Shown: positions 15,661 through 35,183 of the stretch, piece by piece
How positions within the stretch are numbered: position 1 is the stretch's first letter
Layout of the letters: each line of letters begins with the position of its first letter
Origin: Candidatus Latescibacterota bacterium
GTDB lineage: Bacteria; Latescibacterota; UBA2968; GCA-2709665
Assembly: GCA_965219455.1 (NCBI GenBank)
Contig: OZ244744.1
Location: 3,424,001-3,488,000, forward strand
Direction: 5' to 3'
DNA: 64,000 bases
Notes under the pieces: generated by a model
Database searches by the model: none
The model's input: only the letters and a program-made list of their open reading frames with translations
Told to the model about the DNA's origin: nothing
Program-made: the position numbers and the translations under genes

Positions 15661-16150
15661 GGATATCGAGTGATTGCGGGTGGTGGATGGACGCGGTCCC
15701 GTCTTACGCTACGGGGCCCTATCGCTTTGTTAACCTCATTCCATTGGCGTTCCGCGGAACGTTCAACGACGACGTTACCAAGTTTAACGATATCTCGGAA
15801 CCTCGGCAACTGTAACGGGACGTCTTTCGTGGAACTATGTCCGCGCGAGCGGCGGCATTCGATGGCGTTATCGGAACGATAGAGCCAGGCGCCGTCGCTT
15901 CGCGGATGCCAGCGGTTTCCCGCTCGCATTTGACGGTGACGACCGGTCTGCCTTTGCGTCACCGCACGCACACATGAGACAGTGGCGCCTTGCTGTTTCG
16001 GGAGGGGGAAGCAAGTACAGGGTGTTTTGTCTCGGACGGTTGATGCGCTCAAGCGATACTTCGAACAAAAGCTTGAAAAGGTGGAGAAGACATTCTTGTC
16101 TGCTCATATACAGCAAACCGAAATCTCAGAATGCTGTGTCCGGGAACGCC

Positions 16151-16295
16151 AAAACTCGCCGCCGTCTTCCCCACTGGAAGAAGGACGGCGCTGTCTATTG
16201 GATCACCTTTCGCCTGGCTGACGCGATCCCCCATGGACAAACGCCGTGCCTTCCAAGAAGCGCGTAAGGTGTGGCTCAAGCGCCATCCCGAGTAT
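16151..16295 (+). pseudogene. N-terminal remnant of a REP-associated tyrosine transposase (RAYT, Y1_Tnp family)
   Basis: RRRLPHWKKDGAVYWITFRLADAIP, then a frameshift to ..EARKVWLKRHP; no HUH/Tyr domain follows. Confidence 0.7.
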
Positions 16296-16358
16296 TGGTT
16301 CTATAGTGGCGGCGCAAGCCTTTCTTCTGTCTGCATTCCGGCAAAAGGACAATGAGAA

Positions 16359-16384
16359 GGGCAGACAGGAATGTCTGCCCCACC
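16359..16384 (-). repeat. REP hairpin next to the RAYT remnant
   Basis: gggcagaca-ggaa-tgtctgccc perfect stem; the minus strand reads GTGGGGCAGACATTCCTGTCTGCCC. Confidence 0.7.
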
Positions 16385-16741
16385 TTCACGATTCCTCAAG
16401 GGCTCGACAAGCCATTGTGCGCGGGGAAGATGATTGATTCGCGTATAAAGCAGCTTTGTTGACCAAATACCCTTCGCGTGTTTGCCCGCCGAGCGCGGGC
16501 TGAAATTACCCATCTGAAGTTTCTTGTTGGATCGAACATCGGTGGCTCTTGTCACCGGTGTTTTCTTGTTACAACGATTCCCTGTGCGTTCGGCGCGGCG
16601 TAAGATGCAACAACGTTTCATCCGAGTGAGGCAGAATGGAACACGTTTTTCAAGTACCGGCCGTGGTACGGCGACCTCCGGACCGTTCAAAAATAAAGTC
16701 GCATATGCAAGCCAGACAGTTATGCCCCTGGGTATTGAGAG

Positions 16742-16757
16742 TGGCACAATCCTTGCG
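16742..16757 (+). promoter_or_regulatory. sigma54 (-24/-12) promoter upstream of the peptide precursor genes
   Basis: TGGCAC-AATCC-TTGC with exact GG-N10-GC spacing, 230 bp before the first precursor. Confidence 0.72.
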
Positions 16758-16985
16758 AGTCCAATGCGTCGACGGAGTCACCGGCAACGGGTGTCGGGTG
16801 ACAGGTTATCACGGTTGATTCGCAGCCGAAGCCGCCCCGGCGGGGCGTGTGCCGAGATCGGAAAAAAGGCATACAAAACGCTTCGGAAATCATGGCATCT
16901 CAGCGATGCGCATCCGGCTCCCTGATTTACAACAGAGGAGATTGTCAGGATATCGCGGGGATGTTGACGAAAGGAGGTGATAGAC

Positions 16986-17189
16986 ATGAACAGGCGAACT
17001 GTATCAAGCCCTGTGGACTCGTCCGGAATTCCGGCTCGGCTTCCCATCCGGACGGAGGACTTGACCCACGGGCAGATTGCAGGCATCTCCGGTGGCGACG
17101 CCGGGTTTGGACGCCTCATCAGAGAATTAGTCGCTGAGATTTTTGGCGTGAGATTACCTGCACCAGAGGTTCCGTCCATAACATTGTAG
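16986..17189 (+). CDS. Double-glycine leader peptide precursor 1 (37-aa leader + 30-aa core)
   Basis: RBS AAGGAGGTGA. Leader ends EDLTHGQIAGISGG (L-12, I-7, I-4); core DAGFGRLIRELVAEIFGVRLPAPEVPSITL. Confidence 0.85.
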   Translation: MNRRTVSSPVDSSGIPARLPIRTEDLTHGQIAGISGGDAGFGRLIRELVAEIFGVRLPAPEVPSITL

Positions 17190-17338
17190 CCATCAAGTAA
17201 TACCGCATCCGGAAGTGGCCTTTGATGGTCCAAATGTGTCCGTCTATTCATTCGCGCAGAGGTATATGGACTCATTATATCGGCGCAAACGGATACATCT
17301 GAGTATCGCTGAGACCCAAAGAGGAAGGAGGTGACGAA

Positions 17339-17542
17339 ATGACCGATCGAATCCTTACAGTGCCAACCCAGGCCACCGTGACCTGCGCTCAGCTCCCTGG
17401 CCGTGAGATCGAACTGGCGCATCGTGAGATGTTGAATTCATCGGGAGGTATCTGGCTACCTACAGGTCCGATCTTTATGGTCCGGTTTATTGCGGAGAGA
17501 ATTGCAGAGGTCATTGACGATTACTTCGACGACGGGAGTTAA
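17339..17542 (+). CDS. Double-glycine leader peptide precursor 2 (37-aa leader + 30-aa core)
   Basis: RBS AAGGAGGTGA. Leader ends ELAHREMLNSSGG; core IWLPTGPIFMVRFIAERIAEVIDDYFDDGS. Confidence 0.85.
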   Translation: MTDRILTVPTQATVTCAQLPGREIELAHREMLNSSGGIWLPTGPIFMVRFIAERIAEVIDDYFDDGS

Positions 17543-17779
17543 TCTTGTGTCCGGTCACGTGGAAGGCCGTAATTCCTGGCGACCTCCACAGGCGACAGTT
17601 CGAGTTGAATTTTCAATATGCGCGTTTTTTTTTGTGGCATCGCCGATGACGGAACCAAACCCTCAGGATATCGTCCGCAATCCAGCTGATCGGCGGGTTG
17701 CTGAAGACACCGTGGTCACTGCGAGACGCAGCATCGTAATCGTAGACACTAATCCTAAACAAATCTTCAGGAGGACATC

Positions 17780-18046
17780 ATGACTCACGCGTTGGCTAAT
17801 CCGATGGCGACCGATGCCGGTCACAAGGTTGTAGCCTGTAATCCACTTCGGTGGCGGGAAGAATTACTCGACACTGGACAGATGGGAGAAACACATGGTG
17901 GGTTCATTTTTATACCAGCCCTGGTCGCGGCTGCCCAAGCTGCCGCACCCTGGATATTGGGTACTGCGAGTGGTATCGTTGCTGGATACATTGTCGCTGA
18001 GTTAACGTCCAATAACGGGGGTGGAAGCTGTTGCTGCAAAAAGTGA
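17780..18046 (+). CDS. Double-glycine leader peptide precursor 3, class II bacteriocin-like (41-aa leader + 47-aa core)
   Basis: RBS AGGAGGA. Leader ends LLDTGQMGETHGG; hydrophobic core with GxxxG motifs (GTASG, GIVAG) and a CCCKK tail. Confidence 0.85.
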   Translation: MTHALANPMATDAGHKVVACNPLRWREELLDTGQMGETHGGFIFIPALVAAAQAAAPWILGTASGIVAGYIVAELTSNNGGGSCCCKK

Positions 18047-18152
18047 GTAGTATGCACAGATAGTCTGTTTGTTTATTTCTGGGATAGGTGCAGTTCAGGG
18101 CTTCTGCACCTATCCCAGAAAAGGTCGATTGACACAAGAGTGGAGGTTTTGG

Positions 18153-18953
18153 ATGAAGGACGCCCTACTCGGGGGAACGTGGAGACGTTTTTTTCTCACG
18201 GCCTTTTTGTATGCGTGTTTGTCCGTTGCGCCGGCCGTTCTATTTGTTAAGTATGTCCTTAATCTGGACAATTCTATACTGTTAGCTGTTTTCGTTGGTC
18301 AGGCATTTTCGTTTATAATCCTGCGAAGAACGCTCTCTGCGTCTGCTGAGCGAATGCTGCGCGCAGTCTGCGGGCTGATTAAGTCGAGTCCCGAAGAAAT
18401 AAAAGGCGTCGAAGACCGAAAATCCGGTCAAGTAGCTATTGACAAAGATGAAGTGTACCAATTGTCCGCATTGATGTTCTGGCTCTCCGCGATGATTGTC
18501 GTGATCGTCAGATTCTCGCTTTCGTGGGAAGTCGATTTACGTCTATCGTTCGGGGGTTTGTTTAAATTCGCAGGATACCTCATCGTTGTTTATGTTTTTC
18601 ACGAAGCACTTCACGGTATTGCCGCGATAGCCTGGGCAAAGATTCCATTTCAATCACTGCACTTTGGTATCAACAGGCGATTGATGGCCCTGTACTGTCA
18701 TGCCGACAGACCGATGACGGTAAGCGCTTACCGGGCATTCGTGCTCTTGCCCATAATTGTGACAACACCGGCTGCGGCCCTGGTATTGTGGTTGGACCCT
18801 GCGATCTGGTCGCTCTTGCTCTTCAGTGGGACAGTTGCCGGGTGCGCCGGAGATGTCATGGTTTATTTCCAAGTCCGCCGACTTGACAATGACAGATGGG
18901 TAAAGGATCACCCGTCGGATATCGGCTTTCGCATTTTGCCTGAAGGGGAATAA
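18153..18953 (+). CDS. DUF3267-like putative zincin membrane metallopeptidase
   Basis: HEALHG, ALYCH, GCAGD, DHP..IG motifs and TM helices. GGAGG RBS at 18142-18146. Confidence 0.78.
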   Translation: MKDALLGGTWRRFFLTAFLYACLSVAPAVLFVKYVLNLDNSILLAVFVGQAFSFIILRRTLSASAERMLRAVCGLIKSSPEEIKGVEDRKSGQVAIDKDEVYQLSALMFWLSAMIVVIVRFSLSWEVDLRLSFGGLFKFAGYLIVVYVFHEALHGIAAIAWAKIPFQSLHFGINRRLMALYCHADRPMTVSAYRAFVLLPIIVTTPAAALVLWLDPAIWSLLLFSGTVAGCAGDVMVYFQVRRLDNDRWVKDHPSDIGFRILPEGE

Positions 18954-19033
18954 CGATAACCTGAGGCGACGAATCCCGAATACGAAAACCGCACGACCCC
19001 ATTTCTCTATCCACCACATATGAAGGTATCTCA

Positions 19034-19876
19034 ATGACGTATCCGAATCTGAAGCAGGCCATTTGGTTGTTGGTTTTATTTGCACTCATTCAAGTCATTC
19101 TGGTCGTGCTTGCGGCCGCTGCAGGCCGGTGGCTGTTCGAGAGTGAATTCTTGTCGGTCATTCTGTTAGTTGTGAGTTTCATTGTCATTCTGCTTTATGT
19201 GCACTACCGCGCAGATCTGACGTGGGAGGATATATCCCGGAGTTTCAACGTGGATTTTGATTGGCGGGTTTGGCCCTGCGTCACAATATCCATTGTCGGT
19301 ATGGCGATGGTTCTTTTCGAATTGGACAAAGCCTTGGTCCGTATAATGCCTATGCCAGAGTGGGTACAGGATACCCTTCATTCGGCGTTCGGGCGCGAAA
19401 CATCTTTCTCGTCTGCCTTACTCTATGCAGTTATTGTCGGACCTTTGGTCGAAGAGGTGCTTCATAGAAGGATAATATTGAGTGGTCTTCTGGCAAACTA
19501 TAACGCGATTAATGCGTTTGTCTGGTCAGCAGTTCTGTTTGGCGTGTTTCATCTGATTCCGTGGCAAATCCCCGGCGCGTTCCTCGGGGGATTGTTACTT
19601 GCCTGGTGGGTTATCCGAACGGGGTCTTTGTTGCCCGCTCTGTTCGGGCACGTGTTGAACAATATTATCGGCGTTGCATCTCTGCACTTTGAAATTCCAT
19701 ATCTGGCGGTTTCGGATGACCTTAATGTTGTGGTTTTCAATCCTTGGTGGTGGATTGTTTCCGGGGCGGCGTTGGCCGCTCTCGGACTATGGTGGTTTTC
19801 ACGGGTTTCGAAACCCGTTCAGCCCGGTTCCCACGACCATGTTCTTCCTGCAAATGCCGAGACAAATACAGGTTAG
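19034..19876 (+). CDS. CPBP/Abi (CAAX protease-like) intramembrane protease, copy 1
   Basis: EEVLHR, FGVFH, GHVLNN motifs all intact; starts MTYPNLKQ. Confidence 0.9.
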   Translation: MTYPNLKQAIWLLVLFALIQVILVVLAAAAGRWLFESEFLSVILLVVSFIVILLYVHYRADLTWEDISRSFNVDFDWRVWPCVTISIVGMAMVLFELDKALVRIMPMPEWVQDTLHSAFGRETSFSSALLYAVIVGPLVEEVLHRRIILSGLLANYNAINAFVWSAVLFGVFHLIPWQIPGAFLGGLLLAWWVIRTGSLLPALFGHVLNNIIGVASLHFEIPYLAVSDDLNVVVFNPWWWIVSGAALAALGLWWFSRVSKPVQPGSHDHVLPANAETNTG

Positions 19877-19960
19877 GGACTGACAGGGCGTTCCTGGTTT
19901 CGTTAGTACCCACATCGGCTACTGGGCGCTCTCCGGGGACGCAATCGGTCGTTGTTACAC

Positions 19961-19976
19961 ATATTATATATAATAT
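19961..19976. promoter_or_regulatory. Perfect 16-bp AT palindrome containing TATAAT upstream of the transporter genes
   Basis: ATATTATATATAATAT; TATAAT at 19969-19974; no consensus -35 at standard spacing. Confidence 0.45.
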
Positions 19977-20170
19977 ATCCTGGAGAGAATGGGTCGACTT
20001 CAAATCTCCGCAAATTAAAATTGAGAGCCGCGTGCAGGATCTCTCGTCAGCGACGGCAAGTCCCGGGTATCCAGCCGGAAGTCTAGTCCGCAACCAACGA
20101 GCCGCGTCCCACCGGACATCGGTATACATCCGGACGTTCGAATAGTTCTGCCATTTACGGGAAGGAAACA

Positions 20171-23100
20171 ATGGACGTCTTGTCCCTCTTTTCCCAACAT
20201 GAGATTCAGTCAGAATCCGTCCGGTTTCCCTTCGGGGCGGTCATCTTTGATCAAGGCGGAACTGGCGCCGCATTTTACGTCGTTCAATCCGGTCGGTTGC
20301 GGGTCATCAAACAGGCTGCGGACGCCCGTTCGGAGACGCTGGGATATTTGTACGCCGGCGATCATTTTGGCGAAGGGGCGCTGTTGACGGGGCGCGGGCA
20401 TCGGGCAACGGTGCGAGCGGTTGAGGATTCCCTGGTGTTGCGGGTACCGCGGGATGAATTCTTCAGGGTGTTGAAGAAAGAACCGGAAATCGAAGCCCAT
20501 CTTCAGGACCAGGTTGCGGATATCGCATACCGGGATTTCACCCGGTATCTAAAGGGTAATGTCCAAGGTGAGGCGATCCGGGAACTGTTCCGGCGATTGA
20601 CGCGCGAAGAGGTCGCGGAGGGAACGACAGTTTCGGAACCCGGTCGTTCGCGCGGGCGGTTCTGCCTGGTGGGCATCGGCGGGTTGGAAGTGATCTCAGA
20701 GGATGGCAGTGCGCTGAATTTAGTCGCGGGCGATTTTTTCGAGGATACGGATTCTTCAGATGGCGAGCAACGGACGATCCGCAGCCAGCAAGATTGCGTT
20801 ATCTATTATTTGGATAAACACGAACTCGATAGCCTCAACTATGCAATTCCTGAATTAGCGTCCTTACCGGAGATAGCCCGGCGATTACACCTGGATCAGG
20901 GAACGGACGGGTCGCTGTCTCCCGAGCCGCAACCGGGGGGATTTCGTGTGCCGGCGGGAGGGACGGACGGGAACAACGACGCGGAGATGAATGGACCGGC
21001 ATCCAGTACCGGGGATAGCGATACGGATGGGGGTGGACAAGGCGCGCCCACGTCGTTTCGTTTTCCATTCCTGAAGCAGCACGACCAGTCCGATTGCGGC
21101 GCCGCGTGTCTGGGGATGATCTGCAAGTACTACAAGTTGCCGTTGGGGTTGAACAGGTTGCGCGATATGTGCAACGTGTCGAAGGACGGCACGTCGATGG
21201 CGGCAGTGGCCGAGGCGGCGGAGACGCTGGGGTTTGTTACGCGGGGCGTGCGTACGGGCTATGAAGAGCTGATGCGGACCGGACTGCCGGCGATTCTGCA
21301 CTGGGAGGGCAACCATTTCGTGGTGTTGTATGAGATCACCAAAAAGGATGTGAAAATCGCGGATCCCGGTTTGGGCCTTCGCAGGTTGAAGCGACCGGAA
21401 TTCGAGAAAAGCTGGACCAACATGGCGTTGCTGCTGGAGTACACGGATCAGGTGGCCGAGAATGAACCCTCCAGGTCCTCCTTCAAACGTTTCTTGCCAT
21501 TGATAAGGCCCTATACGGCAATTCTGATCGAGGTGCTGCTGGCGTCCCTCGTGCTCAGTTTATTGGGCCTTGCCTCGCCTATTTTCACACAGACAATCGT
21601 CGACCAGGTGCTGGTTCATCACGATAAGGATCTCCTGAACCTGATGCTGGCGGGCATGGTGGTCGTGGCACTGTTTCAAATGGGTACCTCGACGTTGCGC
21701 GCGTATTTAATAGGGTATATGAGCGCCCGGTTGAGTCTGACCATGCTGTCCCGCTTCTACCGGCATCTGCTGGGCCTGTCCATGCGGTTTTTTGCGCTTC
21801 GCCGCACCGGCGATCTGACCACGCGGTTCAAGGAAAATGCCACGATTCAGCGTCTCTTTACCGACACGACCATCTCGGCGATACTCGACTTTATCATGTT
21901 GTTCGTCTATCTGGGGCTGATGTTCTACTACAACTGGGAATTGACGCTCGTGATGTTGATATTCGTGCCGCTGTCCGTGGGTTTGACGCTGATCTATACC
22001 CCGATTCTGAAGTCCTTCAGCCAGCGCGCATTTCTTGCCCGCGCGGAACAGTCGTCCGTCCTGATCGACTCGCTGCATGGCATTGACGTGGTGAAAGCCG
22101 AAGCCGTCGAGCGGGTTACGAGATGGCAGTGGGAGGGCAAGTTTACGAGGGAAGTTCAGATCGGGTTTCGACGACTGAAAATGGAGATGCTGTTCGGCGC
22201 GGGCGGAAGTATGATTAATCTCTTGAGTTCCACGGTGATATTGTGGTATGGCGCCTCCCTGGTTATCGACGGGGAGTTGTCGGTGGGCCAGTTGATGGCT
22301 TTCAACGCCCTCATCGGCAATGTAATGGGACCCATTATGGGACTGATCGGCGTGTGGCCGGAGGTCCAGGAAGCCCGGGTCGCGTTGGACAGGCTGAATG
22401 ACGTCTACGAATCGAAGATGGAGGATGCGCGCCAACGCGGACACGGCCTGAGACTGAAGCGGGTCGAGGGCCGCCTGGTGTTTGAAGGTGTGTTTTTCAG
22501 GTACGGCGTCGGTTCCGACGAGCCCTACGTGTTGAACAACATCGAGCTGGAACTGGAACCGGGTCGAAAGGTCGCCATTGTCGGCCGTAGCGGCGCGGGA
22601 AAGACCACGCTCGTAAAGCTGGTGCCCCGTCTGTTCGATCCCTCGGAAGGGCGTGTGCTCGTGGACGGGATGGATGTGCGCGATTTCGACCCTCACTGGC
22701 TGCGCCGCCAGGTGGGCATGGTTATGCAGGACTCGTTTCTGTTCAGCGGCACCATTGCGGAGAACATCGCGGTCGGAGAATCTGACGCGGATATGGACCG
22801 TCTCCTGGAAGTTGCAAGATTGGCCTGCGTCCAGGATTTCGTAAACGATATGCCTTTGGGATACGAGACCAAGGTGGGCGAACAGGGAATTGGATTGTCC
22901 GGCGGGCAGCGGCAACGGATCGCGATCGCCCGGGCGCTGTATCGCGATCCGAAGATACTGATTTTCGACGAGGCGACAAATGCGCTTGATACGGACTCGG
23001 AAGGTGCGATTCAGTCCAATCTGGAGCTATTCCTTGAGAATCGTACGGCTCTCGTCATCGCCCATCGGTTGAGCACCGTGAGGGATGCCGACACGATTGT

Positions 23101-23206
23101 TGTACTGGAAAAGGGCCATATCGTCGACATGGGCACGCACGAAGAACTGATGGTTCGTCGCGGTCTCTACTATCACATGTGCAGCCAGCAGTTGCAGGTG
23201 GTCTGA
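20171..23206 (+). CDS. Peptidase-containing ABC transporter (cNMP-binding x2, C39 peptidase, TMD, NBD)
   Basis: cNMP motif GDHFGE.ALL....RATVRA plus a degenerate second copy. C39 QHDQSDCGAAC, HFVV, IADP (Cys/His/Asp intact). GRSGAGKT, LSGGQRQR, FDEAT, AHRL. Confidence 0.95.
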   Translation: MDVLSLFSQHEIQSESVRFPFGAVIFDQGGTGAAFYVVQSGRLRVIKQAADARSETLGYLYAGDHFGEGALLTGRGHRATVRAVEDSLVLRVPRDEFFRVLKKEPEIEAHLQDQVADIAYRDFTRYLKGNVQGEAIRELFRRLTREEVAEGTTVSEPGRSRGRFCLVGIGGLEVISEDGSALNLVAGDFFEDTDSSDGEQRTIRSQQDCVIYYLDKHELDSLNYAIPELASLPEIARRLHLDQGTDGSLSPEPQPGGFRVPAGGTDGNNDAEMNGPASSTGDSDTDGGGQGAPTSFRFPFLKQHDQSDCGAACLGMICKYYKLPLGLNRLRDMCNVSKDGTSMAAVAEAAETLGFVTRGVRTGYEELMRTGLPAILHWEGNHFVVLYEITKKDVKIADPGLGLRRLKRPEFEKSWTNMALLLEYTDQVAENEPSRSSFKRFLPLIRPYTAILIEVLLASLVLSLLGLASPIFTQTIVDQVLVHHDKDLLNLMLAGMVVVALFQMGTSTLRAYLIGYMSARLSLTMLSRFYRHLLGLSMRFFALRRTGDLTTRFKENATIQRLFTDTTISAILDFIMLFVYLGLMFYYNWELTLVMLIFVPLSVGLTLIYTPILKSFSQRAFLARAEQSSVLIDSLHGIDVVKAEAVERVTRWQWEGKFTREVQIGFRRLKMEMLFGAGGSMINLLSSTVILWYGASLVIDGELSVGQLMAFNALIGNVMGPIMGLIGVWPEVQEARVALDRLNDVYESKMEDARQRGHGLRLKRVEGRLVFEGVFFRYGVGSDEPYVLNNIELELEPGRKVAIVGRSGAGKTTLVKLVPRLFDPSEGRVLVDGMDVRDFDPHWLRRQVGMVMQDSFLFSGTIAENIAVGESDADMDRLLEVARLACVQDFVNDMPLGYETKVGEQGIGLSGGQRQRIAIARALYRDPKILIFDEATNALDTDSEGAIQSNLELFLENRTALVIAHRLSTVRDADTIVVLEKGHIVDMGTHEELMVRRGLYYHMCSQQLQVV

Positions 23207-23233
23207 ACCTCCGGCAGACCAGGAGCCGATCTG

Positions 23234-24634
23234 ATGGCGGAACCCGGACTAACAAAGCCGTCGGCAGCAGCGACGCCGGTCATTCTCCCGGGACGGTACG
23301 ACGGTACGGAAGAGATGCAGGCGTTCGTGGGGTCTCTGAGGCCGTTCTGGGGTCGAGCGTTGCTCTATCTCGTTCTGCTCTTTGTAGGAATCGCGGTGGC
23401 TTGGGCGTGGTGGGGCAAGGTGGACGTGGTGGCATCGGCGCCCTTCCGATTGGTGCCTCTGGGCAAGGTGAAGACGCTTCAGGCCCGTCGAGGCGGAGAA
23501 ATCGAGCATATCGGCGTCAGCGAAGGCGATCGGATCGAAGAAGGCCAATTGCTGTTCAAACTGAAGTCATGGGAAACCTGGGGAGACCTTCGAGAACTGG
23601 AACAGGCGGAAATGGCGTTTCAAAAGGCCGAGTACGATCTTCAACGGGTATTGCCCCAGAGGACGGAATTGAACCGGAAAACCATCGCGTCAATGGAAAA
23701 AAGACTGTCTGTTCTGGAGCGGTTCATGGTGGCCCATCAGAACGCCTTGCAGGATTACCACGCGGACGTGGGTGACGACGCGGTCGCGGGAAGGAGCGCT
23801 TCGGACGCTGAGTTGCAGGCACAAATCGGCTTTCGCCAGGCTGAGATCGACCATTTGAAACAGGATTACCTGCAGCAGAAATTGCTGTTTGAGCGCAAGC
23901 TGATCAGCCGCGTGGAAATTAACCGCGCGCGCGTTCGGTACCTCAGCGCCCTGGCGGCGCTTCCGGGACGCATGTCGGAAATCTACAAGAACGAAACGGC
24001 TGTCCAGGATCTCCAACGGCAGATTCTCGAGGCTCGCATCGCCCACGGGCGTGAGGCCTCGCAGATGAAACACGCGTATGAAACCGCGCGATTGAGATTG
24101 GAACAGGCGCGTAAACGCGTCGATCGACAGTTGGAAGCCGAATCGGACCTGATTCTGGCGCCGGAGCCGGGCATCGTAACGCAGGTGATGGTGAACACCC
24201 TGGGACAGGTGATCAGCAAGGGTCAGGCGCTGGTTTCGGTGGCGCCGGCCTCTGCTCCCATGGTTGCCGAACTCACGGTATTGAACAGGGACGTGGGCCT
24301 GCTTAAACCCGGACAGATAGTCAAACTGAAATACGACGCGTTTGCATTTCAGGACTTTGGCATCAAACGCGGCTGGCTCAAACAACTCTCCCCCGATGCC
24401 GTCATCGACGAGAGTGTCGGGCCGATCTTCAGGGCCGTTGTTGAATTGGAAAAAACCACCATGGCCGTGAAGGGACAGCAAAAGCCGCTGCTGTTCGGAA
24501 TGAAGGGGACGGCGGAAATCATGACGGACCGCCAATCGGTCTTGCTGATGTTACTCAGTCCTTTGAGAAAGCTGTACGAGTCCGCAACGTACGATGCCGC
24601 GGAAACGTCAATTGCGCGGCAGGGGGATTCGTAA
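23234..24634 (+). CDS. HlyD-family membrane fusion protein of type I secretion
   Basis: Single TM then KVDVVASA; lipoyl-like halves, long coiled coil, VKLKYDAF, GMKGTAEI. Confidence 0.92.
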   Translation: MAEPGLTKPSAAATPVILPGRYDGTEEMQAFVGSLRPFWGRALLYLVLLFVGIAVAWAWWGKVDVVASAPFRLVPLGKVKTLQARRGGEIEHIGVSEGDRIEEGQLLFKLKSWETWGDLRELEQAEMAFQKAEYDLQRVLPQRTELNRKTIASMEKRLSVLERFMVAHQNALQDYHADVGDDAVAGRSASDAELQAQIGFRQAEIDHLKQDYLQQKLLFERKLISRVEINRARVRYLSALAALPGRMSEIYKNETAVQDLQRQILEARIAHGREASQMKHAYETARLRLEQARKRVDRQLEAESDLILAPEPGIVTQVMVNTLGQVISKGQALVSVAPASAPMVAELTVLNRDVGLLKPGQIVKLKYDAFAFQDFGIKRGWLKQLSPDAVIDESVGPIFRAVVELEKTTMAVKGQQKPLLFGMKGTAEIMTDRQSVLLMLLSPLRKLYESATYDAAETSIARQGDS

Positions 24635-25449
24635 TGCGGCGTCCGGCGGAAGACGAAACCGTAGCCTCGGCCCTTGAAATAACGCTGGTTCAGGTCAATG
24701 GCATCGATGTGTCGCTGAATCAGGTCGCATGTCAGCTGGGCGTTGCCGACAAACTCGATTTTTTCGGTGAATTCGCACGCAGGGAACTGGTCCGGCAGCT
24801 TGCCGTCCGGGAAGGTATTCACACGACGTCCGAAGACATCCAGCGCGACGTGGACGATTGGCGTTACCGACATCGCCTGGAAAGGGTGGAAGACACGGAA
24901 GCCTGGCTGGTATCGCGAGGCATTACTCTCGGAGACGTTGCGGCGGAAGCCGAAGACAGGCTGTTGGAGCGCCTGCTGTGTGAAAAAATAGCGGAAGGAG
25001 AAATCGAACGCTATTTCGCGCAAAACACGCTGGATTTCGACGAGGCGGAGGTCTGCTGGGTCTTCCACCCGGACAGAGGTACCATCGAGGAGATTGCGCT
25101 TCAGACGCGGGAAGACGGCACCGATTTTTGCGCGATGGCCCGCGGATTTTCGCAAGATGAGCGGACGCGCCCGGCAGGCGGGTTTATGGGGCGCGTGCGG
25201 CGCAAGCTGTTGCCGAAGGGAATCGCGGCGCGGGTTTTCGCCGCCTCGCCGGGGGAAATCTTCGGACCCGAAAAGGCGTCGGGCGGGTTCGCGCTGTTTA
25301 TGCTTCAGCAGAACCATCCTGCAACGCTTGACGACCGCGTCACAGGCGAGATTCGCGACACATTGTTCAACCAGTGGCTTCAAAGGGAGTTGCAACGGGC
25401 GGACATACGCTATCCGATCTGGGAGGCCGGGAAGCAGGAGCGGCAATAA
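24634..25449 (+). CDS. PpiC/parvulin-like peptidyl-prolyl isomerase or chaperone associated with the T1SS
   Basis: SurA-like helical N-part, then DFCAMARGFSQD...GGFMG, VFAASPGEIFGP. Start overlaps the hlyD stop (TAATG). Confidence 0.82.
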   Translation: MRRPAEDETVASALEITLVQVNGIDVSLNQVACQLGVADKLDFFGEFARRELVRQLAVREGIHTTSEDIQRDVDDWRYRHRLERVEDTEAWLVSRGITLGDVAAEAEDRLLERLLCEKIAEGEIERYFAQNTLDFDEAEVCWVFHPDRGTIEEIALQTREDGTDFCAMARGFSQDERTRPAGGFMGRVRRKLLPKGIAARVFAASPGEIFGPEKASGGFALFMLQQNHPATLDDRVTGEIRDTLFNQWLQRELQRADIRYPIWEAGKQERQ

Positions 25450-25636
25450 ATGCCCGGCAGAGGCCGGTGACTGCGTGCTTCACCGATGGCAGCAAAATAG
25501 ACCTCGAGGTATACCTTCGGTTTACCGGTGGTTGGGCTCAATCATAGCGAACCGTCAACGCAGCGGCTGGCTTCAGGTAAGCATACGCCCTCGCTGCTGA
25601 CTGATCGCCTTTATCATACTTAATCTGAATTAGCAC

Positions 25637-25665
25637 TTGTCATTCTCATTCGCGGAAACTATATT
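25637..25665 (+). promoter_or_regulatory. sigma70-type promoter directly before the structured element
   Basis: TTGTCA, 17 bp, TATATT; predicted start ~25671-25672. Confidence 0.6.
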
Positions 25666-25670
25666 TCGGT

Positions 25671-25809
25671 TGTCACCACTCAGGCAGTACCCGTATGTCG
25701 GGTAGCCTACCGAATACAATAGCCGACTTTCAGGGGCAAGGGTAGCTCCCATGTCCCCGGCGAATACGTAGGACCTTCCCGCATCCTCAAAGCTGCGTGA
25801 GTGGTGACA
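25671..25809 (+). ncRNA. Candidate structured small RNA (~140 nt, three-way junction); alternatively a MITE
   Basis: Ends pair 16/17 (tgtcaccactcaggcag / ctgcgtgagtggtgaca). Internal stems tacccg/cgggta, cctac/gtagg, gccg/cggc, ggggca/tgtccc. An upstream promoter points at its first base. Confidence 0.5.
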
Positions 25810-26066
25810 CTGCCCGGCACCCTTTAATCGGGGTGCCGCCGGAAAGTTCATCACTGAATGGCGAGGGGATGGAGCGGGATTTTTTTGTGCCCTTTTCGGC
25901 ACGTACGGTCAACCGATGCGGCGGCGCGGTCTATAATATCACGTGTGCGGTCAGCAGTTGCAGGTGGTGTGTACACATAATTAAGAAACGGTACTCAGAC
26001 TGAGCCGCGTCCCCACTGGTTTGCGGTCGTTGGATGTGCTGACATCTGTCAAATGGGAGGAAATAC

Positions 26067-26894
26067 ATGGCGTATCCGAACCTGAAGCAATCCGTGTGGC
26101 TCCTGATATTGTGTTTCCTGATCAGCGTGGTACTGGGGGTGCCGATCGCAATCCTGGGTCTCATCTTCGACCGGTCTTTACATCACAGCCCACACGAAAT
26201 CCAGCTCTTGACATTGGCCGGTTTCGTTTTGACGGTAATCTACGCAAAGCGTAGAGCAGATCGGACCTGGCGCGAGATCCTGCTTTTTGAGCGGGTTTCG
26301 TGGCAATTCTACATGCCGCTCGGCGTGTCCATTGTTGGACTGGCAATCGTTGGCTCGGACCTGGGAAACCTGTTGCGGCACCTGATACCGGTGCCCGAAA
26401 TAATGCTCAACGTATTCGGGGATCTGGCAGGGAAGGAGAAGTCCTACCCGTTCACATTTTATGTCATGGTGGTTCAGGCGCCATTGATTAAGGAAGTCCT
26501 CTTCAGAAGCGTTATACTGGGTGGCTTGTTGGCCCACCGAACGCGGAATCAGGCCATTGTCTGGTCGGCGTTGCTGTTCGCTGTATTTCATATGAACCCA
26601 TGGCAATTTCCCACGGCCTTGATATTGGGACTCGTATTCGCATGGTGGGTCGTCCAAACTGGCTCTCTGCTGCCCGCGATCGTGGGACACGCGCTGAACA
26701 ATTTTCTGATAGTGACGGTTGCGCATCTGGAAATTTTCGGTCCCATGGATAATGTCAATGCCGTGATGTTGCTTCCCGGGTGGCTGCACGTATGTGGCGT
26801 TATCCTGGCTCTGATCGGATTGTGGTGGTTCAATGAGATGGCAAAAAGCAAAGGCGAGCAGGTCGAAACGCTAGCAGACCGGGAGCATGTCTGA
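26067..26894 (+). CDS. CPBP/Abi protease paralog, copy 2 (EE motif changed to KE)
   Basis: IKEVLFR, FAVFH, GHALNN; starts MAYPNLKQS; GGGAGG RBS. Confidence 0.88.
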   Translation: MAYPNLKQSVWLLILCFLISVVLGVPIAILGLIFDRSLHHSPHEIQLLTLAGFVLTVIYAKRRADRTWREILLFERVSWQFYMPLGVSIVGLAIVGSDLGNLLRHLIPVPEIMLNVFGDLAGKEKSYPFTFYVMVVQAPLIKEVLFRSVILGGLLAHRTRNQAIVWSALLFAVFHMNPWQFPTALILGLVFAWWVVQTGSLLPAIVGHALNNFLIVTVAHLEIFGPMDNVNAVMLLPGWLHVCGVILALIGLWWFNEMAKSKGEQVETLADREHV

Positions 26895-26978
26895 TGGCGG
26901 AACCCCTCAAACGACCCTCGCCGGGGATCCGGATCGATTGATGTACGGACAGCTGATCGTTTAAATGGGAGGCCATAC

Positions 26979-27834
26979 ATGGCGTATCCGAATCTGAAGC
27001 AATCCGTCCTGTTGGTGGTCCTGTTGTACCTGATTATGTTAGGACTGTTTTTGCCCCTTGTCCTCCTGAGCGGGATTCTTGACCAGGATTTGATCTCGAA
27101 TCCCTATGTCAATACCTTCGTGACATTGGTCAGTTTCTTCCTGGTGATTGTGTACGCCCGGCGGCGGACCGACCGGACCTGGCCCGATATCCTGCTATTC
27201 AGAACGGTACCCTGGGGATTGTACCTGCCCCTTGCGGTTTCTATTGTTGGACTGTCGATCGCAATCTCCATCGTGGAAGACGGGGTACATTACCTGATTC
27301 CGATGCCCGAAATGATAGTCAAGATATTTCGAGATCTGGTGTCGAAAGAAACGCCCTATGCTTACGCTTTTTATAACCTTGCGGTCCAGCCGCCGTTTAC
27401 GGAAGAAGTGCTATTCAGGGGTGTCATTCTGATTGGCTTGCTGGCCCACCAGACCCGGAAACGGGCTATTTTCTGGTCGGCATTCCTGTTCGCTCTATTT
27501 CATTTGAATCCGTGGCAGATTCCCGCCGCCCTTGTATTGGGAATTGTATTTGCCTGGTGGGTCATTCAGACCGGTTCGCTGCTGCCCGCGATTGCGGGCC
27601 ATGCGCTGAATAATTTCCTTTTCCTCAATGGTTGCGCGCTACGAAATATTCGGGCCTTTGGATGATTTCAATAATCTGGCATGCCTTCCGTGGTGGCTGA
27701 ACGTGTGCGGCATCATCCTCGCAGTAGTCGGTTTGTGGTGGTTCAACCAGATGGTAAACCGCGGCAAGACGCAGGTAGAAATGTCGACCAACCATGCGCC
27801 GGTCGAAGCGCCCGCTGATCGGGATCCTGTCTGA
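26979..27834 (+). pseudogene. CPBP/Abi protease paralog, copy 3, +1 frameshift near 27624-27627
   Basis: EEVLFRG, FALFH, GHALNN in ORF 26979-27665. The homologous tail MVARYEIFGP..LWWFN continues in another frame to 27834. Confidence 0.82.
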
Positions 27835-28027: not shown

Positions 28028-28185
28028 GGAGGGAATCCGGATGTAAATTCGCACACATCGAGGATGTAGATTTCCCGCGGCAGGAAGATCAGGCACAACC
28101 CGACAAGGCGTTTGCCCCATGCGGAGTGGGTTCCCCCTTAGCGCCCCATCGTACCCGCCTGCGCCGGCGAATGAGTGAATCGCCC

Positions 28186-29382
28186 ATGATTCCTCGAAAA
28201 AGACTGGATATCGGCTGGCGCGATCTCCTTTTCGGCATGAACCAATGCCTGGCGCGGGACAGACGCGCGGAAGCCCATACTGCGTGCCGGGAGAGCACCG
28301 GCGATCCCGACGATGCTCTGTTTTTTCTCTCGCTTCGCAGCGGCTTCGATGCCTATCTCCAGGCCGCCCGATTTCCGAGCGGGTCGCACATTCTGGTGTC
28401 CGCCATCACCATTCCCGACATGCTCGAGATCATCCGGAGCCATGGCCTGGTGCCCGTACCGGTCGATCTGGATCCACTCACGCTTGCGCCCGATCCGGAG
28501 AGCCTGGAAAGCGGGGTCACGCCCAGGGCCGTTGCGCTGCTGGCGACCCATTTGTTCGGCGCCCGCATCCCCATGGATCCCCTCGTAAGCTTCGCAAGGC
28601 GTCACGGCCTGGTGCTGTTGGAAGACTGCGCCCAGGCGTTCTGGGGTGACGGCTTTACAGGCCACCCGGGCAGTCACGTGCGGATGTTCAGTTTCGGCCC
28701 TATCAAGTACAATACCGCTTTGGGTGGCGGCCTTCTTTTTGTGGGCGATCCCGTCCTGCGAGACAGAGTTCGGCGGCTGCATAACGACTATCCGGTACAG
28801 AGCAAAGGCCGGTTCTTCGTGCGCCTGGCGAAATACGGCGTCGTTCTCCTGCTCAACAGGCCTGGACCCTATACCCTTCTGTGCGCCGCGTGCCGCCTGT
28901 TGGGCAGGTCCCACGATACGGTGAGTTACCGCGCCATACGCGGTTTCCGGGGAGTGGAACTGCTCGAAAAAATCCGCCGTCAGCCCTGCGGCGCCCTTCT
29001 GTCCTTATTGTCGAGGCGTCTGCGCTCCAACGCTCTGGAGCGGACCGGCAGCCGGCCTGAGGCCATGGCGTTTCACCGCAGCGTTCCGGACCTCTGCTAC
29101 CCGGGCAACGGGGCGGAACACACCTATTGGCTCTTCGTCGTCCGTGTGGGCAATGCCGCGGACCTGTGCAGGCGGCTCTGGGATGCCGGCCTGGACGGAC
29201 ATCTGTGGCCGCCGTCGCTTTGCGTGGTTCGGCCCGATCGGGATCTGCCGGGCAAGTTGCCACTCTGCGTGGACGTCCTGCAACGGCAACTGCTGTTCCT
29301 TCCGGTGTATCCGCAGGCAGGGCGGGTTCGCCTTCAGCAGTTGAGCCGCGTCGTGCGCCGATGGGCGCAGCAGCATGGGTGA
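28186..29382 (+). CDS. DegT/DnrJ/EryC1/StrS-like PLP-dependent protein
   Basis: THLFG, EDCAQA, FSFGPIKYNTALGGG (PLP Lys). Start uncertain (28126/28171/28186). Confidence 0.8.
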   Translation: MIPRKRLDIGWRDLLFGMNQCLARDRRAEAHTACRESTGDPDDALFFLSLRSGFDAYLQAARFPSGSHILVSAITIPDMLEIIRSHGLVPVPVDLDPLTLAPDPESLESGVTPRAVALLATHLFGARIPMDPLVSFARRHGLVLLEDCAQAFWGDGFTGHPGSHVRMFSFGPIKYNTALGGGLLFVGDPVLRDRVRRLHNDYPVQSKGRFFVRLAKYGVVLLLNRPGPYTLLCAACRLLGRSHDTVSYRAIRGFRGVELLEKIRRQPCGALLSLLSRRLRSNALERTGSRPEAMAFHRSVPDLCYPGNGAEHTYWLFVVRVGNAADLCRRLWDAGLDGHLWPPSLCVVRPDRDLPGKLPLCVDVLQRQLLFLPVYPQAGRVRLQQLSRVVRRWAQQHG

Positions 29383-29433: not shown

Positions 29434-29883
29434 ATGCAGTCCAGTGAATCGAGAACATTGATTACAGGCGTGATTGGATCGGATTGCCAAATCGTGGGCA
29501 CCCGTATTCTCAGCATGGCCCTGGAGAAGGCGGGATTCAACGTCGTGTCGCTTGGGGTTCTCACGCCGCCGGTTGAGTTCGTCAACGCGGCCGTGGAAAC
29601 AGATGCCGACGCCATCATGGTTTCTTCGTTGTACGGGCAGGGCGAACTCGACTGCCGCGGTTTCCGCGAAATCTGTATCGAGGCTGGTATCGGAGAGATT
29701 CTGATTTACGTCGGCGGCAACCTGGTTGTCGGCAAACAGGACTGGCGCGACGTGGAAAGCCGGTTTCTGGACATGGGCTTCGACCGGGCTTTCCCTCCCG
29801 GAACGCGTACGAATGAAGTGATATCCGCGCTCGAACGCGACTTTGAGGCACCCGCCGGCGGATATCTCAAGGACCATCCATGA
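29434..29883 (+). CDS. mamA: Glutamate (methylaspartate) mutase S subunit-like B12-binding protein; DxHxxG His replaced by Gln
   Basis: GVIGSDCQIVG, AAVETDADAIMVSSLYGQG, YVGGNLVVG, MGFDRAFPPGT. Confidence 0.85.
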   Translation: MQSSESRTLITGVIGSDCQIVGTRILSMALEKAGFNVVSLGVLTPPVEFVNAAVETDADAIMVSSLYGQGELDCRGFREICIEAGIGEILIYVGGNLVVGKQDWRDVESRFLDMGFDRAFPPGTRTNEVISALERDFEAPAGGYLKDHP

Positions 29884-31292
29884 GCGAGGCGGTGGCACTG
29901 CTCATCGATTTCGGAAGTACCTATACCAAGCTGAGAGCCGTCGATTTGAGCAACGGCCGACTCCTGGGATCCGGCCAGGCGCCCTCCACGGTCGAGACCG
30001 ACGTAACAGAGGGATTCACCGAGGCCCTCAAGGTTCTGGAACGGCACATGAGCAAACCGCCGCGTTTCCGCTACAGGTTGGCCTGCAGCAGCGCGGCCGG
30101 CGGTCTCCGCCTGGTGACGGTGGGCCTGGTACGCGAGTTGACCGCCGAGGCGGCGCGCCAGGCAGCACTGGGGGCGGGCGCGAAATTGATCGAGGCGTTC
30201 GCGCATGAATTGACCCGCGAAGATGCCGATAAAATCGCCCGCCTCGAGCCGGACATCATCCTGCTGGTCGGCGGCACTGACGGCGGCAACGGCGAGGTCA
30301 TCGTCGCCAATGCACGGACACTGGCGAATCTTCCGATTCGATGCCCGGTGGTAGTCGCGGGAAACCGGTCCGCCGCCGCCGGCATAAACGACGTGTTTAC
30401 AGCCGCCGGTACGCCCGTTGCGTTAACCGAAAACGTAATGCCGTCGTACGGCGTACTGAATATAGAGCCCGCCCGCGATGAAATCCGACGAATTTTCATC
30501 AAGCGCATCGTTCATGCAAAAGGAATCGATCGCGCCAAGGGAATGTTCGATCTGGTTCTGATGCCCACGCCGGCCGCCGTCCTGGAAGGCGCCCGGCTGC
30601 TCGCGGACGGCGACGGCCAGCGCCCGGGGCTGGGTACACTGGTGGCGGTCGACGTCGGAGGCGCGACGACCGATGTCCATTCCATTTGTTCGGGGGAGTC
30701 CACCCTGGGCAGCATTTCGGCGGACCTCCTTCCTGAGCCCCACGCCAAGCGTACGGTCGAGGGCGACCTGGGAATGCGTTACAGTGCGTTATCGGTGCTG
30801 GAAGCCGCGGGTCTGGAAGCCGTCGCCTGCGACGCCAGGCTGCCGGCCATCCGGGTGGAATCAATCGTCCGAGCCGTTAACAAGTGCGTCTCACGGTTGC
30901 CGGGTGATATCGAGGACCAGATGGTCGACCGTGCCCTTGCCCGTGCCGCGGTACGCATTGCCGTGAGCCGGCATGCCGGTACGGTCGAAACCGTCCATAC
31001 GGCTAGCGGACCGGTCGTCGTCCAGCGCGGCAAAGACCTGACAGACGTCAGTGCCGTCGTGGGTACGGGCGGGGTGCTGGCCGCGTCCGGACAGGCGGAT
31101 GAAATCCTGGAGATGGCCCTCGCGGAATCAGGCGATCCATTCTCGCTGAAACCCTGTAAGCCACGGTTGCTGCAGGACCGGAATCACGTCCTTTACGCCT
31201 GCGGGCTCCTGGCGGCGGCCGATCCTGAAGCCGCGCTTACGCTCGCGCTCACACAAATCCGAGCCACCGGACGGGAACCTCAGCAGGTGTAA
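29880..31292 (+). CDS. glmL: Glutamate mutase accessory protein GlmL/MutL (actin-like ATPase fold)
   Basis: IDFGSTYTK, CSSAAGGL, GGTDGGN, MPTPAAV, DVGGATTDVHS, KRTVEGDLG; ATGA overlap with the S subunit. Confidence 0.9.
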   Translation: MSEAVALLIDFGSTYTKLRAVDLSNGRLLGSGQAPSTVETDVTEGFTEALKVLERHMSKPPRFRYRLACSSAAGGLRLVTVGLVRELTAEAARQAALGAGAKLIEAFAHELTREDADKIARLEPDIILLVGGTDGGNGEVIVANARTLANLPIRCPVVVAGNRSAAAGINDVFTAAGTPVALTENVMPSYGVLNIEPARDEIRRIFIKRIVHAKGIDRAKGMFDLVLMPTPAAVLEGARLLADGDGQRPGLGTLVAVDVGGATTDVHSICSGESTLGSISADLLPEPHAKRTVEGDLGMRYSALSVLEAAGLEAVACDARLPAIRVESIVRAVNKCVSRLPGDIEDQMVDRALARAAVRIAVSRHAGTVETVHTASGPVVVQRGKDLTDVSAVVGTGGVLAASGQADEILEMALAESGDPFSLKPCKPRLLQDRNHVLYACGLLAAADPEAALTLALTQIRATGREPQQV

Positions 31293-35097: not shown

Positions 35098-35183
35098 TGG
35101 TGCGGAAGGGGGGACTCGAACCCCCACGGGCGAAGCCCACCAGATCCTAAATCTGACGTGTCTGCCAATTCCACCACTTCCGC
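35098..35183 (-). tRNA. tRNA-Leu(TAG), CCA encoded
   Basis: Reverse complement GCGGAAG...TGGCAGA...TCAGA-TTTAGGA-TCTGG, long variable arm, GGTTCGAGTCC, CTTCCGC-ACCA. Confidence 0.97.

Follow-up and report, generated by a model that had tools for sequence, protein, structure and literature searches.

What does a bacterium produce with a gene cluster that joins three very small open reading frames (ORFs) to a peptide exporter and to several membrane-embedded proteases, and what are these proteases for? The question is raised by a 64,000-nucleotide stretch of a Candidatus Latescibacterota genome (GCA_965219455.1, contig OZ244744.1, positions 3,424,001 to 3,488,000), which is called the window here. 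ORF calls, the sequence itself, Pfam and NCBIfam place all parts of a candidate peptide-export locus on the plus strand at 16986-27834, and the system is single-copy in the host genome, which is complete and consists of a single contig of 5.84 Mb. A first reading of this DNA (the original prediction) had let the locus begin at 16742; no feature boundary lies there and the first peptide gene begins at 16986. The locus most likely represents a dedicated system of the peptidase-containing ABC transporter (PCAT) type that cuts and exports three small peptides. As to what the peptides do, the tentatively preferred answer, held with somewhat less than even confidence, is an exported, unmodified and antagonistic multi-peptide system in which intramembrane proteases provide immunity.

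Three precursor peptides and one exporter

The peptides and the machinery assigned to them are encoded by six genes:

16986-17189, plus strand: pep1, starting with ATG, 67 amino acids (aa); GGAGG at 16973-16977; 37-aa leader ending in ISGG and 30-aa core with net charge -1
17339-17542, plus strand: pep2, 67 aa; GGAGG at 17327-17331; 37-aa leader ending in SSGG and 30-aa acidic core with net charge -4
17780-18046, plus strand: pep3, 88 aa; GGAGG at 17770-17774; 41-aa leader ending in THGG and 47-aa hydrophobic core
20171-23206, plus strand: cNMP-C39-ABC transporter of the 'long type', 1011 aa (Pfam)
23234-24634, plus strand: HlyD-family periplasmic adaptor (TIGR01843, 211.7 bits, cut-off 208.65; Pfam HlyD_3)
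24634-25449, plus strand: SurA/PrsA-like parvulin protein (PF00639, E 2.3e-10), its start overlapping the HlyD stop

Three small ORFs with strong ribosome-binding sites and double-glycine (GG) leaders upstream of a transporter had been claimed, and they are borne out: GGAGG stands 5-8 nt ahead of the ATG in each of pep1, pep2 and pep3, and each matches a common leader profile. In a six-frame scan of the host genome (109,948 segments) this profile matches only the three peptides at E 1e-13 to 1e-16 (pep1 1.2e-13, pep2 1.5e-16), the next best segment reaching E 0.044. Cutting after GG yields cores of 30, 30 and 47 aa for pep1, pep2 and pep3, the lengths given by the original prediction.

For comparison, 39 sources were used, namely the window and 38 related loci, which public records label as Candidatus Latescibacterota/Latescibacteria (34), Gemmatimonadota (3) and uncultured bacterium (1); the related loci are mutually kin, and all counts across loci are inflated by this kinship. 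Iterated profiles built from the three peptides converge on one set of 83 stop-to-stop segments that share the leader and occur in 36 of the 39 sources, a result that settles in the affirmative the conservation of the ORFs, on which the original prediction had made its case depend. All 83 segments lie upstream of the transporter and on its strand, with 0-4 peptides per locus, and one of them, in locus L048, is a truncated remnant. In the joint alignment, leader position -2 is Gly in 83 of 83 peptides and position -1 is Gly in 66, Leu in 14, Gln in 2 and Met in 1. Leu at about -19 (82/83) and Pro at about -18 (70/83) form a near-invariant Leu-Pro, followed by Leu at -12 (75/83) and Met at -7 (58/83). 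The residues encoded just 5' of the start codons mirror conserved Shine-Dalgarno sequences.

A search of 1.84 billion representative proteins with a 38-position leader profile returned 108 matches at E <= 1e-3, nine of them at E <= 1e-10. Judged by eye, 8 of the 108 are long repeat proteins and 1 (P0104) is a partial-profile match; the remaining 99 proteins are 54-191 aa long and begin, or nearly begin, with the leader. No Pfam or NCBIfam family, including the NHLP and Nif11 leader models, matches pep1-3 at E <= 0.01, and homologues of pep3 amount to 4 clusters among 5.77 billion proteins, in line with the earlier remark that the cores were not recognisable. A literature search, which did not cover the precursor lists in Tables S2 and S3 of Wang 2011, found no account of this leader family or of the Latescibacterota locus.

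The lack of family annotation in Pfam and NCBIfam might be taken to mean that the small ORFs are chance or decayed frames and that the transporter exports something else. This is exceedingly improbable in view of the 83 homologues with their conserved leader, invariant Gly and strong ribosome-binding sites, always upstream on the transporter strand, of the roughly 100 small proteins with an N-terminal leader among the profile matches and of a genome whose only three matches all lie at the locus. Sequence comparison thus identifies pep1-3 as genuine genes sharing one lineage-specific double-glycine leader family.

The domain order of the transporter agrees with what had been claimed, a cNMP domain and an intact C39 triad. 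PF00027 (cNMP) covers residues 17-103 (E 1.3e-25) and PF03412 (C39) residues 298-424 (E 1.5e-38); the exporter part consists of the transmembrane region (PF00664, E 2.6e-54) and the ATPase (PF00005, E 7e-34) with the motifs GRSGAGKT at 805, LSGGQ at 909 and ILIFDE at 929. Every best match to NCBIfam falls under its cut-off. Residues Q303, C309, H382 and D398 align with LahT150 (6mpz, E 2.1e-22) and PCAT1 (4ry2), and C309 aligns with an Ala of the deposited PCAT1 chain 7n87, which presumably marks the position of the catalytic Cys; we take C309, H382 and D398 to be the catalytic Cys, His and Asp and Q303 to be the oxyanion Gln. By these alignments the transporter is a PCAT of the C39 family with its catalytic set intact. 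It is the only ABC gene of the genome with a C39 region, and genetic linkage makes pep1-3 most likely its substrates, as they are the only GG-leader ORFs in the genome and all are adjacent to it. The multi-peptide GG-leader export system of the original prediction therefore stands, with three leader-profile ORFs beside the sole C39 ABC gene.

The HlyD and the parvulin-like protein were likewise recovered (see above), and the trio of ABC, HlyD and parvulin genes lies side by side in 20 of the 20 loci fetched. As had been stated, no enzyme modifying ribosomally synthesized peptides, no two-component system and no TolC was found in or beside the locus by family scans that included the flanks. The TolC-type OEP domain scores above its curated cut-off 10 times, at five sites of the genome outside the locus, as five genes would give, so the missing linked TolC is ordinary.

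The parvulin protein matches TIGR04500 (PpiC_rel_mature) at 80.2 and 78.8 bits, below the cut-off of 180, over model positions 84-336 of 340; in a control scan TIGR04500 likewise matched Synechococcus elongatus only below cut-off. In the accessible parts of the sources concerned, TIGR04500 appears in print only in gene lists near graspetide loci (PMC8939145; PMC13097080). An AlphaFold model (predicted local distance difference test, pLDDT, 75; predicted template-modelling score, pTM, 0.51) comprises an N-terminal helical part, the parvulin domain and a C-terminal helix, and Foldseek places SurA, PrsA and PEB4-type chaperones at its top ranks (E 1e-7 to 1e-6, template-modelling score 0.3-0.4). 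No signal peptide or membrane segment is visible in the sequence, and the protein is therefore probably cytoplasmic, unlike SurA or PrsA. Strong matches (E <= 1e-76) occur in 33 of 41 related genomes from two families of the order. Homologues number 140 proteins at E <= 1e-5; among the 120 listed, all are at least 67% identical, and the few named ones carry Gemmatimonadota/Gemmatimonadetes labels of metagenome-assembled genomes. An Atlas look-up of one homologue (P0124) led to generic rotamase clusters from several phyla. It is conceivable that the parvulin protein serves the Leu-Pro of the leader.

A further feature follows the last peptide gene:

18076-18121, plus strand: 18-bp stem-loop, fold -40.5 kcal/mol, z -3.5

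Within 130 nt downstream of the last peptide gene, 24 of 35 loci have a hairpin of -25 kcal/mol or lower (median -26.2). Peptide genes in other positions are followed by one in 0 of 48 cases (median -16.7), and control windows contain one in 17 of 117 (median -18.7). The post-peptide sequences are unlike each other, so the structure recurs without sequence conservation. In lantibiotic and bacteriocin operons, a hairpin after the precursor gene is the usual device that gives more precursor than machinery transcript. By analogy, the post-peptide hairpin fits such an excess-precursor device.

Fixed leaders and exchanged cores

Beyond the cut site the sequences of the 83 peptides are hypervariable, with core lengths of 8-115 aa. 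The window encodes two 30-aa amphipathic acidic cores and one 47-aa hydrophobic core, that of pep3, which contains a G-x3-G-x3-G run, ends in SCCCKK and has a maximal Kyte-Doolittle (KD) 19-residue mean of 1.89. By a simple hydropathy threshold (KD >= 1.6), a transmembrane-like 19-residue window is present in 17 of the 83 cores. At least 2 Cys lie within the last 12 residues of 15 cores. Net charge is negative in 60 cores, zero in 9 and positive in 14, and many cores are long and of low complexity, for example the Gly/Ser/Thr-rich ones of loci L063 and L065-L071.

How such cores diverge is seen by comparing pep1 with its counterpart at locus L036: the leaders are identical at 36 of 37 positions and the cores at 5 of 30, at an identity of 95% between the two ABC proteins. 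Sequence comparison identifies this contrast as cassette exchange at the leader-core junction. More generally, leaders are fixed while cores are swapped or unrelated, even among close relatives, and core swapping together with a variable number of peptides is the pattern of conflict systems and not that of conserved structural or signalling peptides.

It is for this reason rather unlikely that the peptides are self-directed signals or components of a matrix or surface, as with EbfG1-4/PteB or HetC, in a system whose cNMP domain ties export to physiology and whose proteases process or clear membrane-trapped peptide. Besides the exchange of cores behind a fixed leader and the range of 0-4 peptides per locus, family scans found no receptor kinase or regulator within the locus. 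The signal or matrix reading is nevertheless favoured by a transporter architecture shared with HetC and PteB (PMC10986499, PMC4997328), by the prevalence of anionic cores, by the long low-complexity cores mentioned above, which are more matrix-like than toxin-like, and by the finding that no dedicated small immunity gene of a family known to Pfam or NCBIfam is present.

The available portions of the two articles allow these relatives to be described as follows. HetC of Nostoc PCC 7120 serves heterocyst differentiation, presumably by exporting a differentiation signal; its cNMP domain binds ppGpp, GTP and GDP, and not cAMP, in vitro, and its catalytic Cys and His are required (PMC10986499). 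The transporter of the window resembles it in the order of cNMP-type domain, C39 and ABC, a likeness of domain description and not of sequence; unlike here, the substrate of HetC is unknown and its role is heterocyst differentiation (PMC10986499). PteB of Synechococcus elongatus PCC 7942, whose domains are similar to those of HetC, secretes the GG-motif proteins EbfG1-4, which are needed for biofilm formation (PMC4997328). Both PteB/EbfG and the window locus hold several small GG-motif proteins, co-transcribed in the case of EbfG, beside a C39 transporter, which for EbfG is required for secretion; they differ in that the EbfG proteins promote biofilm, that no CPBP or DUF3267 is described in the portions available and that the cores are unrelated by family scans (PMC4997328).

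Related loci show further core types. In another genus (L048-L061, L068), many cores have Cys as their first residue (GG|C, DG|C, GL|C), carry an extremely negative charge of -10 to -13 and close with aromatic motifs, for example SEWWASW and NPFPWPM. The Leu at -1 in 14 of the 83 peptides gives an unusual G-L site. A second, more distant ABC-HlyD-parvulin trio (L062-L071; parvulin 47-53% identical), often in the same genomes as the first, goes with a single long Gly/Ser/Thr-rich GG-leader peptide and is without CPBP genes.

Intramembrane proteases beside membrane-like cores

Four protease genes, one of them broken, flank the export genes:

18153-18953, plus strand: DUF3267 intramembrane zinc protease of the S2P clan (PF11667, E 3.2e-15); frame open from 18069, likely ATG at 18153
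19034-19876, plus strand: CPBP1, Rce1-like glutamic intramembrane protease (PF02517, E 1.3e-16); motifs EEVLHR, FGVFH and HVLNN intact
26067-26894, plus strand: CPBP2, Rce1-like paralogue (Pfam, E 1e-18); motif 1 is KEVLFR, the first Glu being replaced
26979-27834, plus strand: CPBP3, Rce1-like paralogue (PF02517); 1-base frameshift near 27627, frames 26979-27665 and 27628-27834

DUF3267 and three CPBP paralogues on one strand had been predicted, and all are present; two corrections concern CPBP3, which is frameshifted, and CPBP2, whose motif 1 begins K-E. CPBP/Abi proteins are defined by the motifs EExxxR, FxxxH and HxxxN. In CPBP3 the corresponding EEVLFR, FALFH and HALNN are present despite the frameshift (two frames by tblastn), and the break is polymorphic: in one contig of sequencing run X6 a single base is missing at 27627 (depth 28 of 51.6), which would bring the frames into register, and run X2, which holds the window stretch at 100%, keeps the form of the window (0 of 25.6). 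Counting fragments, 64 CPBP-like places were compared: motif 1 is E-E...R in 50 and K-E...R in 9, 1 is a mis-hit of the pattern search (CPBP1) and 4 are fragments. All 9 K-E places match CPBP2 best, and in eight related loci the K-E gene is the first CPBP gene after the parvulin gene.

The trio of ABC, HlyD and parvulin genes is constant, in contrast to the proteases, which number 0-5 (CPBP) and 0-3 (DUF3267) per locus in variable order, and in several loci the CPBP genes outnumber the peptides. As a rule the protease genes come after the hydrophobic peptide gene that ends the series; in the window the DUF3267 gene lies directly 3' of pep3. Among 35 peptide-bearing loci, all 15 with a transmembrane-like core (KD >= 1.6) carry CPBP and/or DUF3267, and all 13 without CPBP/DUF3267 have no such core (table [[13,7],[0,15]]). 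The loci are kin, so this association is to be read as a pattern and not as a test.

The same co-occurrence would also be expected if DUF3267 and the CPBPs were biosynthetic, trimming hydrophobic precursors in the producer membrane before extraction, as a diderm counterpart of TMcin maturation. The precedent, described in the accessible parts of two articles, is TmcP of Staphylococcus aureus, a DUF3267 protein and the only one characterised, which cleaves off the TMcin leader within the membrane (PMC13712780; PMC13252029), and the proteases of the locus could therefore be maturation enzymes. Their DUF3267 protein fits this role in that it directly follows pep3 and in that 8 of 8 orthologues retain the HExxH (HEALHG) and the distal Asp (AGD) unchanged; the recurrent tail with at least 2 Cys in 15 of 83 cores might be a site of processing or modification. 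A complex prediction for DUF3267 and pep3 scored 0.59, against 0.00 for the best of 3 controls, with contacts agreeing to at least 86% between runs and a partner pLDDT of at least 71. Among 80 solved complexes 58 attain the mark applied, among 110 mismatched pairs 2, and the range up to 0.60 holds only 7 of the 80 solved complexes and both passing mismatches, so that the predicted pairing receives weak support. Maturation by these proteases is unlikely, as the leaders bear a canonical C39 site and the transporter an intact peptidase, protease copies exceed peptides and vary freely, with one copy broken and one lineage lacking the first Glu of motif 1, and 13 peptide-bearing loci are without any such protease. 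No TmcE- or TmcD-like partner was identified, no sequence search having been aimed at them.

As far as the accessible text on TMcins goes, both pathways place a DUF3267/S2P-clan protease (HExxH and distal Asp) beside a precursor with a transmembrane-like core helix and C-terminal Cys, together with an ABC exporter (PMC13712780). In pep3, the core combines a hydrophobic stretch (KD 1.89) with a C-terminal CCC, yet a GG/C39 site is present as well; the TMcin product has a transmembrane helix and a conserved two-Cys disulfide, and its pathway includes the escort TmcE as well as TmcD. Unlike here, the DUF3267 enzyme itself cuts the TMcin leader, without C39, and TMcins are known from Gram-positives (PMC13712780); the loci described here have the GG/C39 route, and not all of them encode DUF3267. 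A separate candidate role, in which the Cys-rich tails would be CAAX-like sites for CPBPs, was rejected: no prenyltransferase is encoded nearby, and L051, L053, L055, L059 and L060 have Cys-bearing tails without CPBPs.

The 617-bp gap between the parvulin gene and CPBP2 contains another element:

25637-25890, plus strand: RNA-like element of ~225 nt with promoter-like TTGTCA-17-TATATT, rod-like fold and T-run end

Its nucleotide identity is 87-93% in 12 loci of the genus and its flanks diverge; the fold has 66 consensus pairs, 3 of them with compensatory changes, and a 20-bp closing stem. An RNA model of the element (R1) matches 32 of 41 related genomes, with a strong copy (253-280 bits) beside the parvulin gene in the window and in 13 of 14 relatives of the same genus; genome G001 is the exception, its highest-scoring copy (110 bits) being on another contig. 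Other places hold weaker copies, as many as 9 in one genome, ahead of unrelated genes; ten neighbouring frames examined encode 1 PD-(D/E)XK, 1 UDG-like (below cut-off), 1 WD40 and 1 PEGA protein and 6 of no family. In Rfam the element matches only sRNA-Xcc1 (RF02221) at 27.6 bits, below the gathering threshold of 53 (E 0.0084 in a 401-nt search), with two large insertions. A function as riboswitch or leader for the CPBP genes was rejected: the other copies sit before unrelated genes, with no system proteins or leaders nearby, and the element is therefore no riboswitch for one gene class.

A quite unlikely variant of membrane maturation would give this RNA a part: DUF3267 and CPBPs would act on membrane-inserted pep3-like precursors, possibly at the Cys-rich tail, before the C39 transporter extracts them, the protease arrays would serve combinatorial tailoring instead of immunity and the ~225-nt RNA would regulate the second gene block.

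Just upstream of CPBP2, a 77-bp relic (25898-25974, plus strand) is 79% identical by blastn to the 3' end of the ABC gene (23132-23208), and at loci L040 and L049 a CPBP gene is placed between ABC and HlyD. Together these sequences suggest that CPBP2 moved from the ABC-HlyD junction.

The preferred antagonistic reading can now be spelled out as a mechanism. Precursors would be produced in surplus, with the hairpin behind the last peptide gene as partial terminator or stabiliser, and a cytoplasmic parvulin-type chaperone might hold on to them, possibly by the near-invariant Leu-Pro in their leaders. The C39 domain would cleave after G(-2)-G(-1), and ABC and HlyD, with an unlinked TolC-like channel, would export the 30-, 30- and 47-aa cores unmodified, the N-terminal cNMP-type domain gating export by an intracellular nucleotide. 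The cores would act jointly on competing bacteria, with hydrophobic, GxxxG-type pep3 as the membrane-active component. DUF3267 and the CPBP intramembrane proteases would shield the producer, and spare or decaying copies would be orphan immunity genes.

The immunity part of this scheme is carried over by analogy from Gram-positive loci, from which Kjos et al. 2010 reportedly described CPBP/Abi immunity genes in bacteriocin loci. The available text of PMC8692603 considers a possible immunity function for CPBP genes found in bacteriocin loci. The window locus shares with Gram-positive class II multi-peptide bacteriocin loci, as far as this source describes them, GG leaders whose positions -7 and -12 are hydrophobic, several peptides encoded side by side, a GxxxG-type hydrophobic peptide and CPBP genes after the structural genes (PMC8692603); it differs from what the consulted text says of them in its diderm host, its HlyD and TolC-type route, the extra cNMP domain and parvulin and the mostly anionic cores.

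Several points weigh against an antagonistic system. With their negative charge, the cores of pep1 (-1) and pep2 (-4), like most of the 83, depart from the cationic character typical of class II bacteriocins. Those members of the transporter type that have been studied best, in the portions of the literature available, export non-toxic peptides, EbfG in the case of PteB (PMC4997328) and a presumed signal in that of HetC (PMC10986499), and the sole characterised DUF3267 protein, TmcP, is biosynthetic in the portion of PMC13712780 available. Proteases are also present in 7 of 20 loci without a transmembrane-like core, three of these seven lying just below the threshold (1.37-1.38). Catalytic residues are kept in the CPBP1 and CPBP3 motifs and in DUF3267, and an enzymatic role in maturation therefore fits as well as immunity; the support for a DUF3267-pep3 pairing is weak. 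Activity, cleavage and secretion are predicted from the genes. The evidence for transcription of the locus is weak as well. Contigs of RNA library X1 (0.07 of words) match 17912-18202, 18557-18768 and six ABC/HlyD stretches at 90-99% likeness and thus fall on parts of the pep3, DUF3267, ABC and HlyD genes; the library is kept as contigs, from which level, strand and ends cannot be read, DNA carry-over is possible and the bins left uncovered, at 17284-17704, 19389-20651 and 24862-27808, are uninformative.

Surroundings and relation to known clusters

On the upstream side the locus is flanked, on the opposite strand, by genes for a TMEM260-like glycosyltransferase and GtrA, and on the downstream side by DegT-like, B12-binding and MutL genes; these flanking genes are syntenic across the genus. 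The DegT-like gene (28126-29382) was considered as a part of the system and rejected: it is syntenic in the genus (13 loci) and absent from the loci of the other genus, and is therefore regarded as a neighbour. Further downstream, 29434-31292 encodes B12-binding and MutL-type proteins resembling a glutamate mutase pair (PF02310, PF13941), and there is a minus-strand tRNA gene at 35101-35183. This tRNA is the sole Rfam match of the whole window at gathering thresholds, which leaves the 1.3-kb region upstream of pep1 unexplained by Rfam.

That upstream gap holds two different parts. At ~16050-16450 lies a dispersed repeat of ~400 bp, with 78 blastn pieces genome-wide at 78-100% identity and, in DNA runs, a 25- to 70-fold depth spike and many joints; it looks like an element related to miniature inverted-repeat transposable elements. 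The following 536 bp (16450-16985) are 84-89% conserved in the two closest loci and ~70% in others, and may be the home of the operon promoter and of regulatory sites. A scan of these 536 bp found no consensus promoter, and promoter and terminator consensus scans of the locus gave no excess over shuffles (7 vs 7.8; 13 vs 13.8).

The machinery has well-described counterparts in cyanobacteria. Wang, Fewer & Sivonen 2011 defined the combination of a CAP_ED/cNMP-C39-ABC 'long type' transporter, HlyD and a rotamase ('SurA') as part of cyanobacterial bacteriocin cluster groups I, II and VI (PMC3140520). According to the accessible text, group I clusters occur in nearly all cyanobacteria examined, and the identified precursors average 0.35 per cluster (PMC3140520; repeated in PMC4558948). 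The window locus resembles groups I and II in its 'long type' transporter, HlyD, rotamase gene and nearby GG precursors, and group I in having no modifying enzyme (PMC3140520). It differs in its phylum and in a leader that matches no NHLP, Nif11 or other NCBIfam or Pfam model, in the 1-4 precursors per locus, as opposed to the group I mean of 0.35 (PMC3140520), and in the CPBP/DUF3267 arrays; the words 'CAAX' and 'Abi' appear 0 times in the main text of PMC3140520.

The claim of a new system is thus upheld in part. The leader family is represented in no Pfam or NCBIfam model, and the set of machinery genes, as far as the available text of the 2011 paper shows, had already been defined in cyanobacteria (PMC3140520). 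What is already known from cyanobacteria is the cNMP-C39-ABC transporter with HlyD and rotamase; what is new is the leader family, the phylum, the cassette-like exchange of cores, the protease arrays accompanying membrane-like cores, the recurrent hairpin and the RNA-like element.

For this family of transporters, the locus extends the 'long type' exporter machinery to an uncultured phylum and supplies a concrete and conserved set of putative substrates for cNMP-C39 'long type' exporters, namely the 83 peptides of the 39 loci, with about 100 clusters known from public data. It also yields three testable ideas: that a dedicated cytoplasmic SurA/PrsA-like protein serves a near-invariant Leu-Pro leader, that CPBP and DUF3267 intramembrane proteases go with membrane-like cores and that the cores behind a constant leader are swapped like cassettes. 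If the proteases were to prove biosynthetic, the recently described membrane-embedded route of the TMcin type would reach into Gram-negative-type cells.

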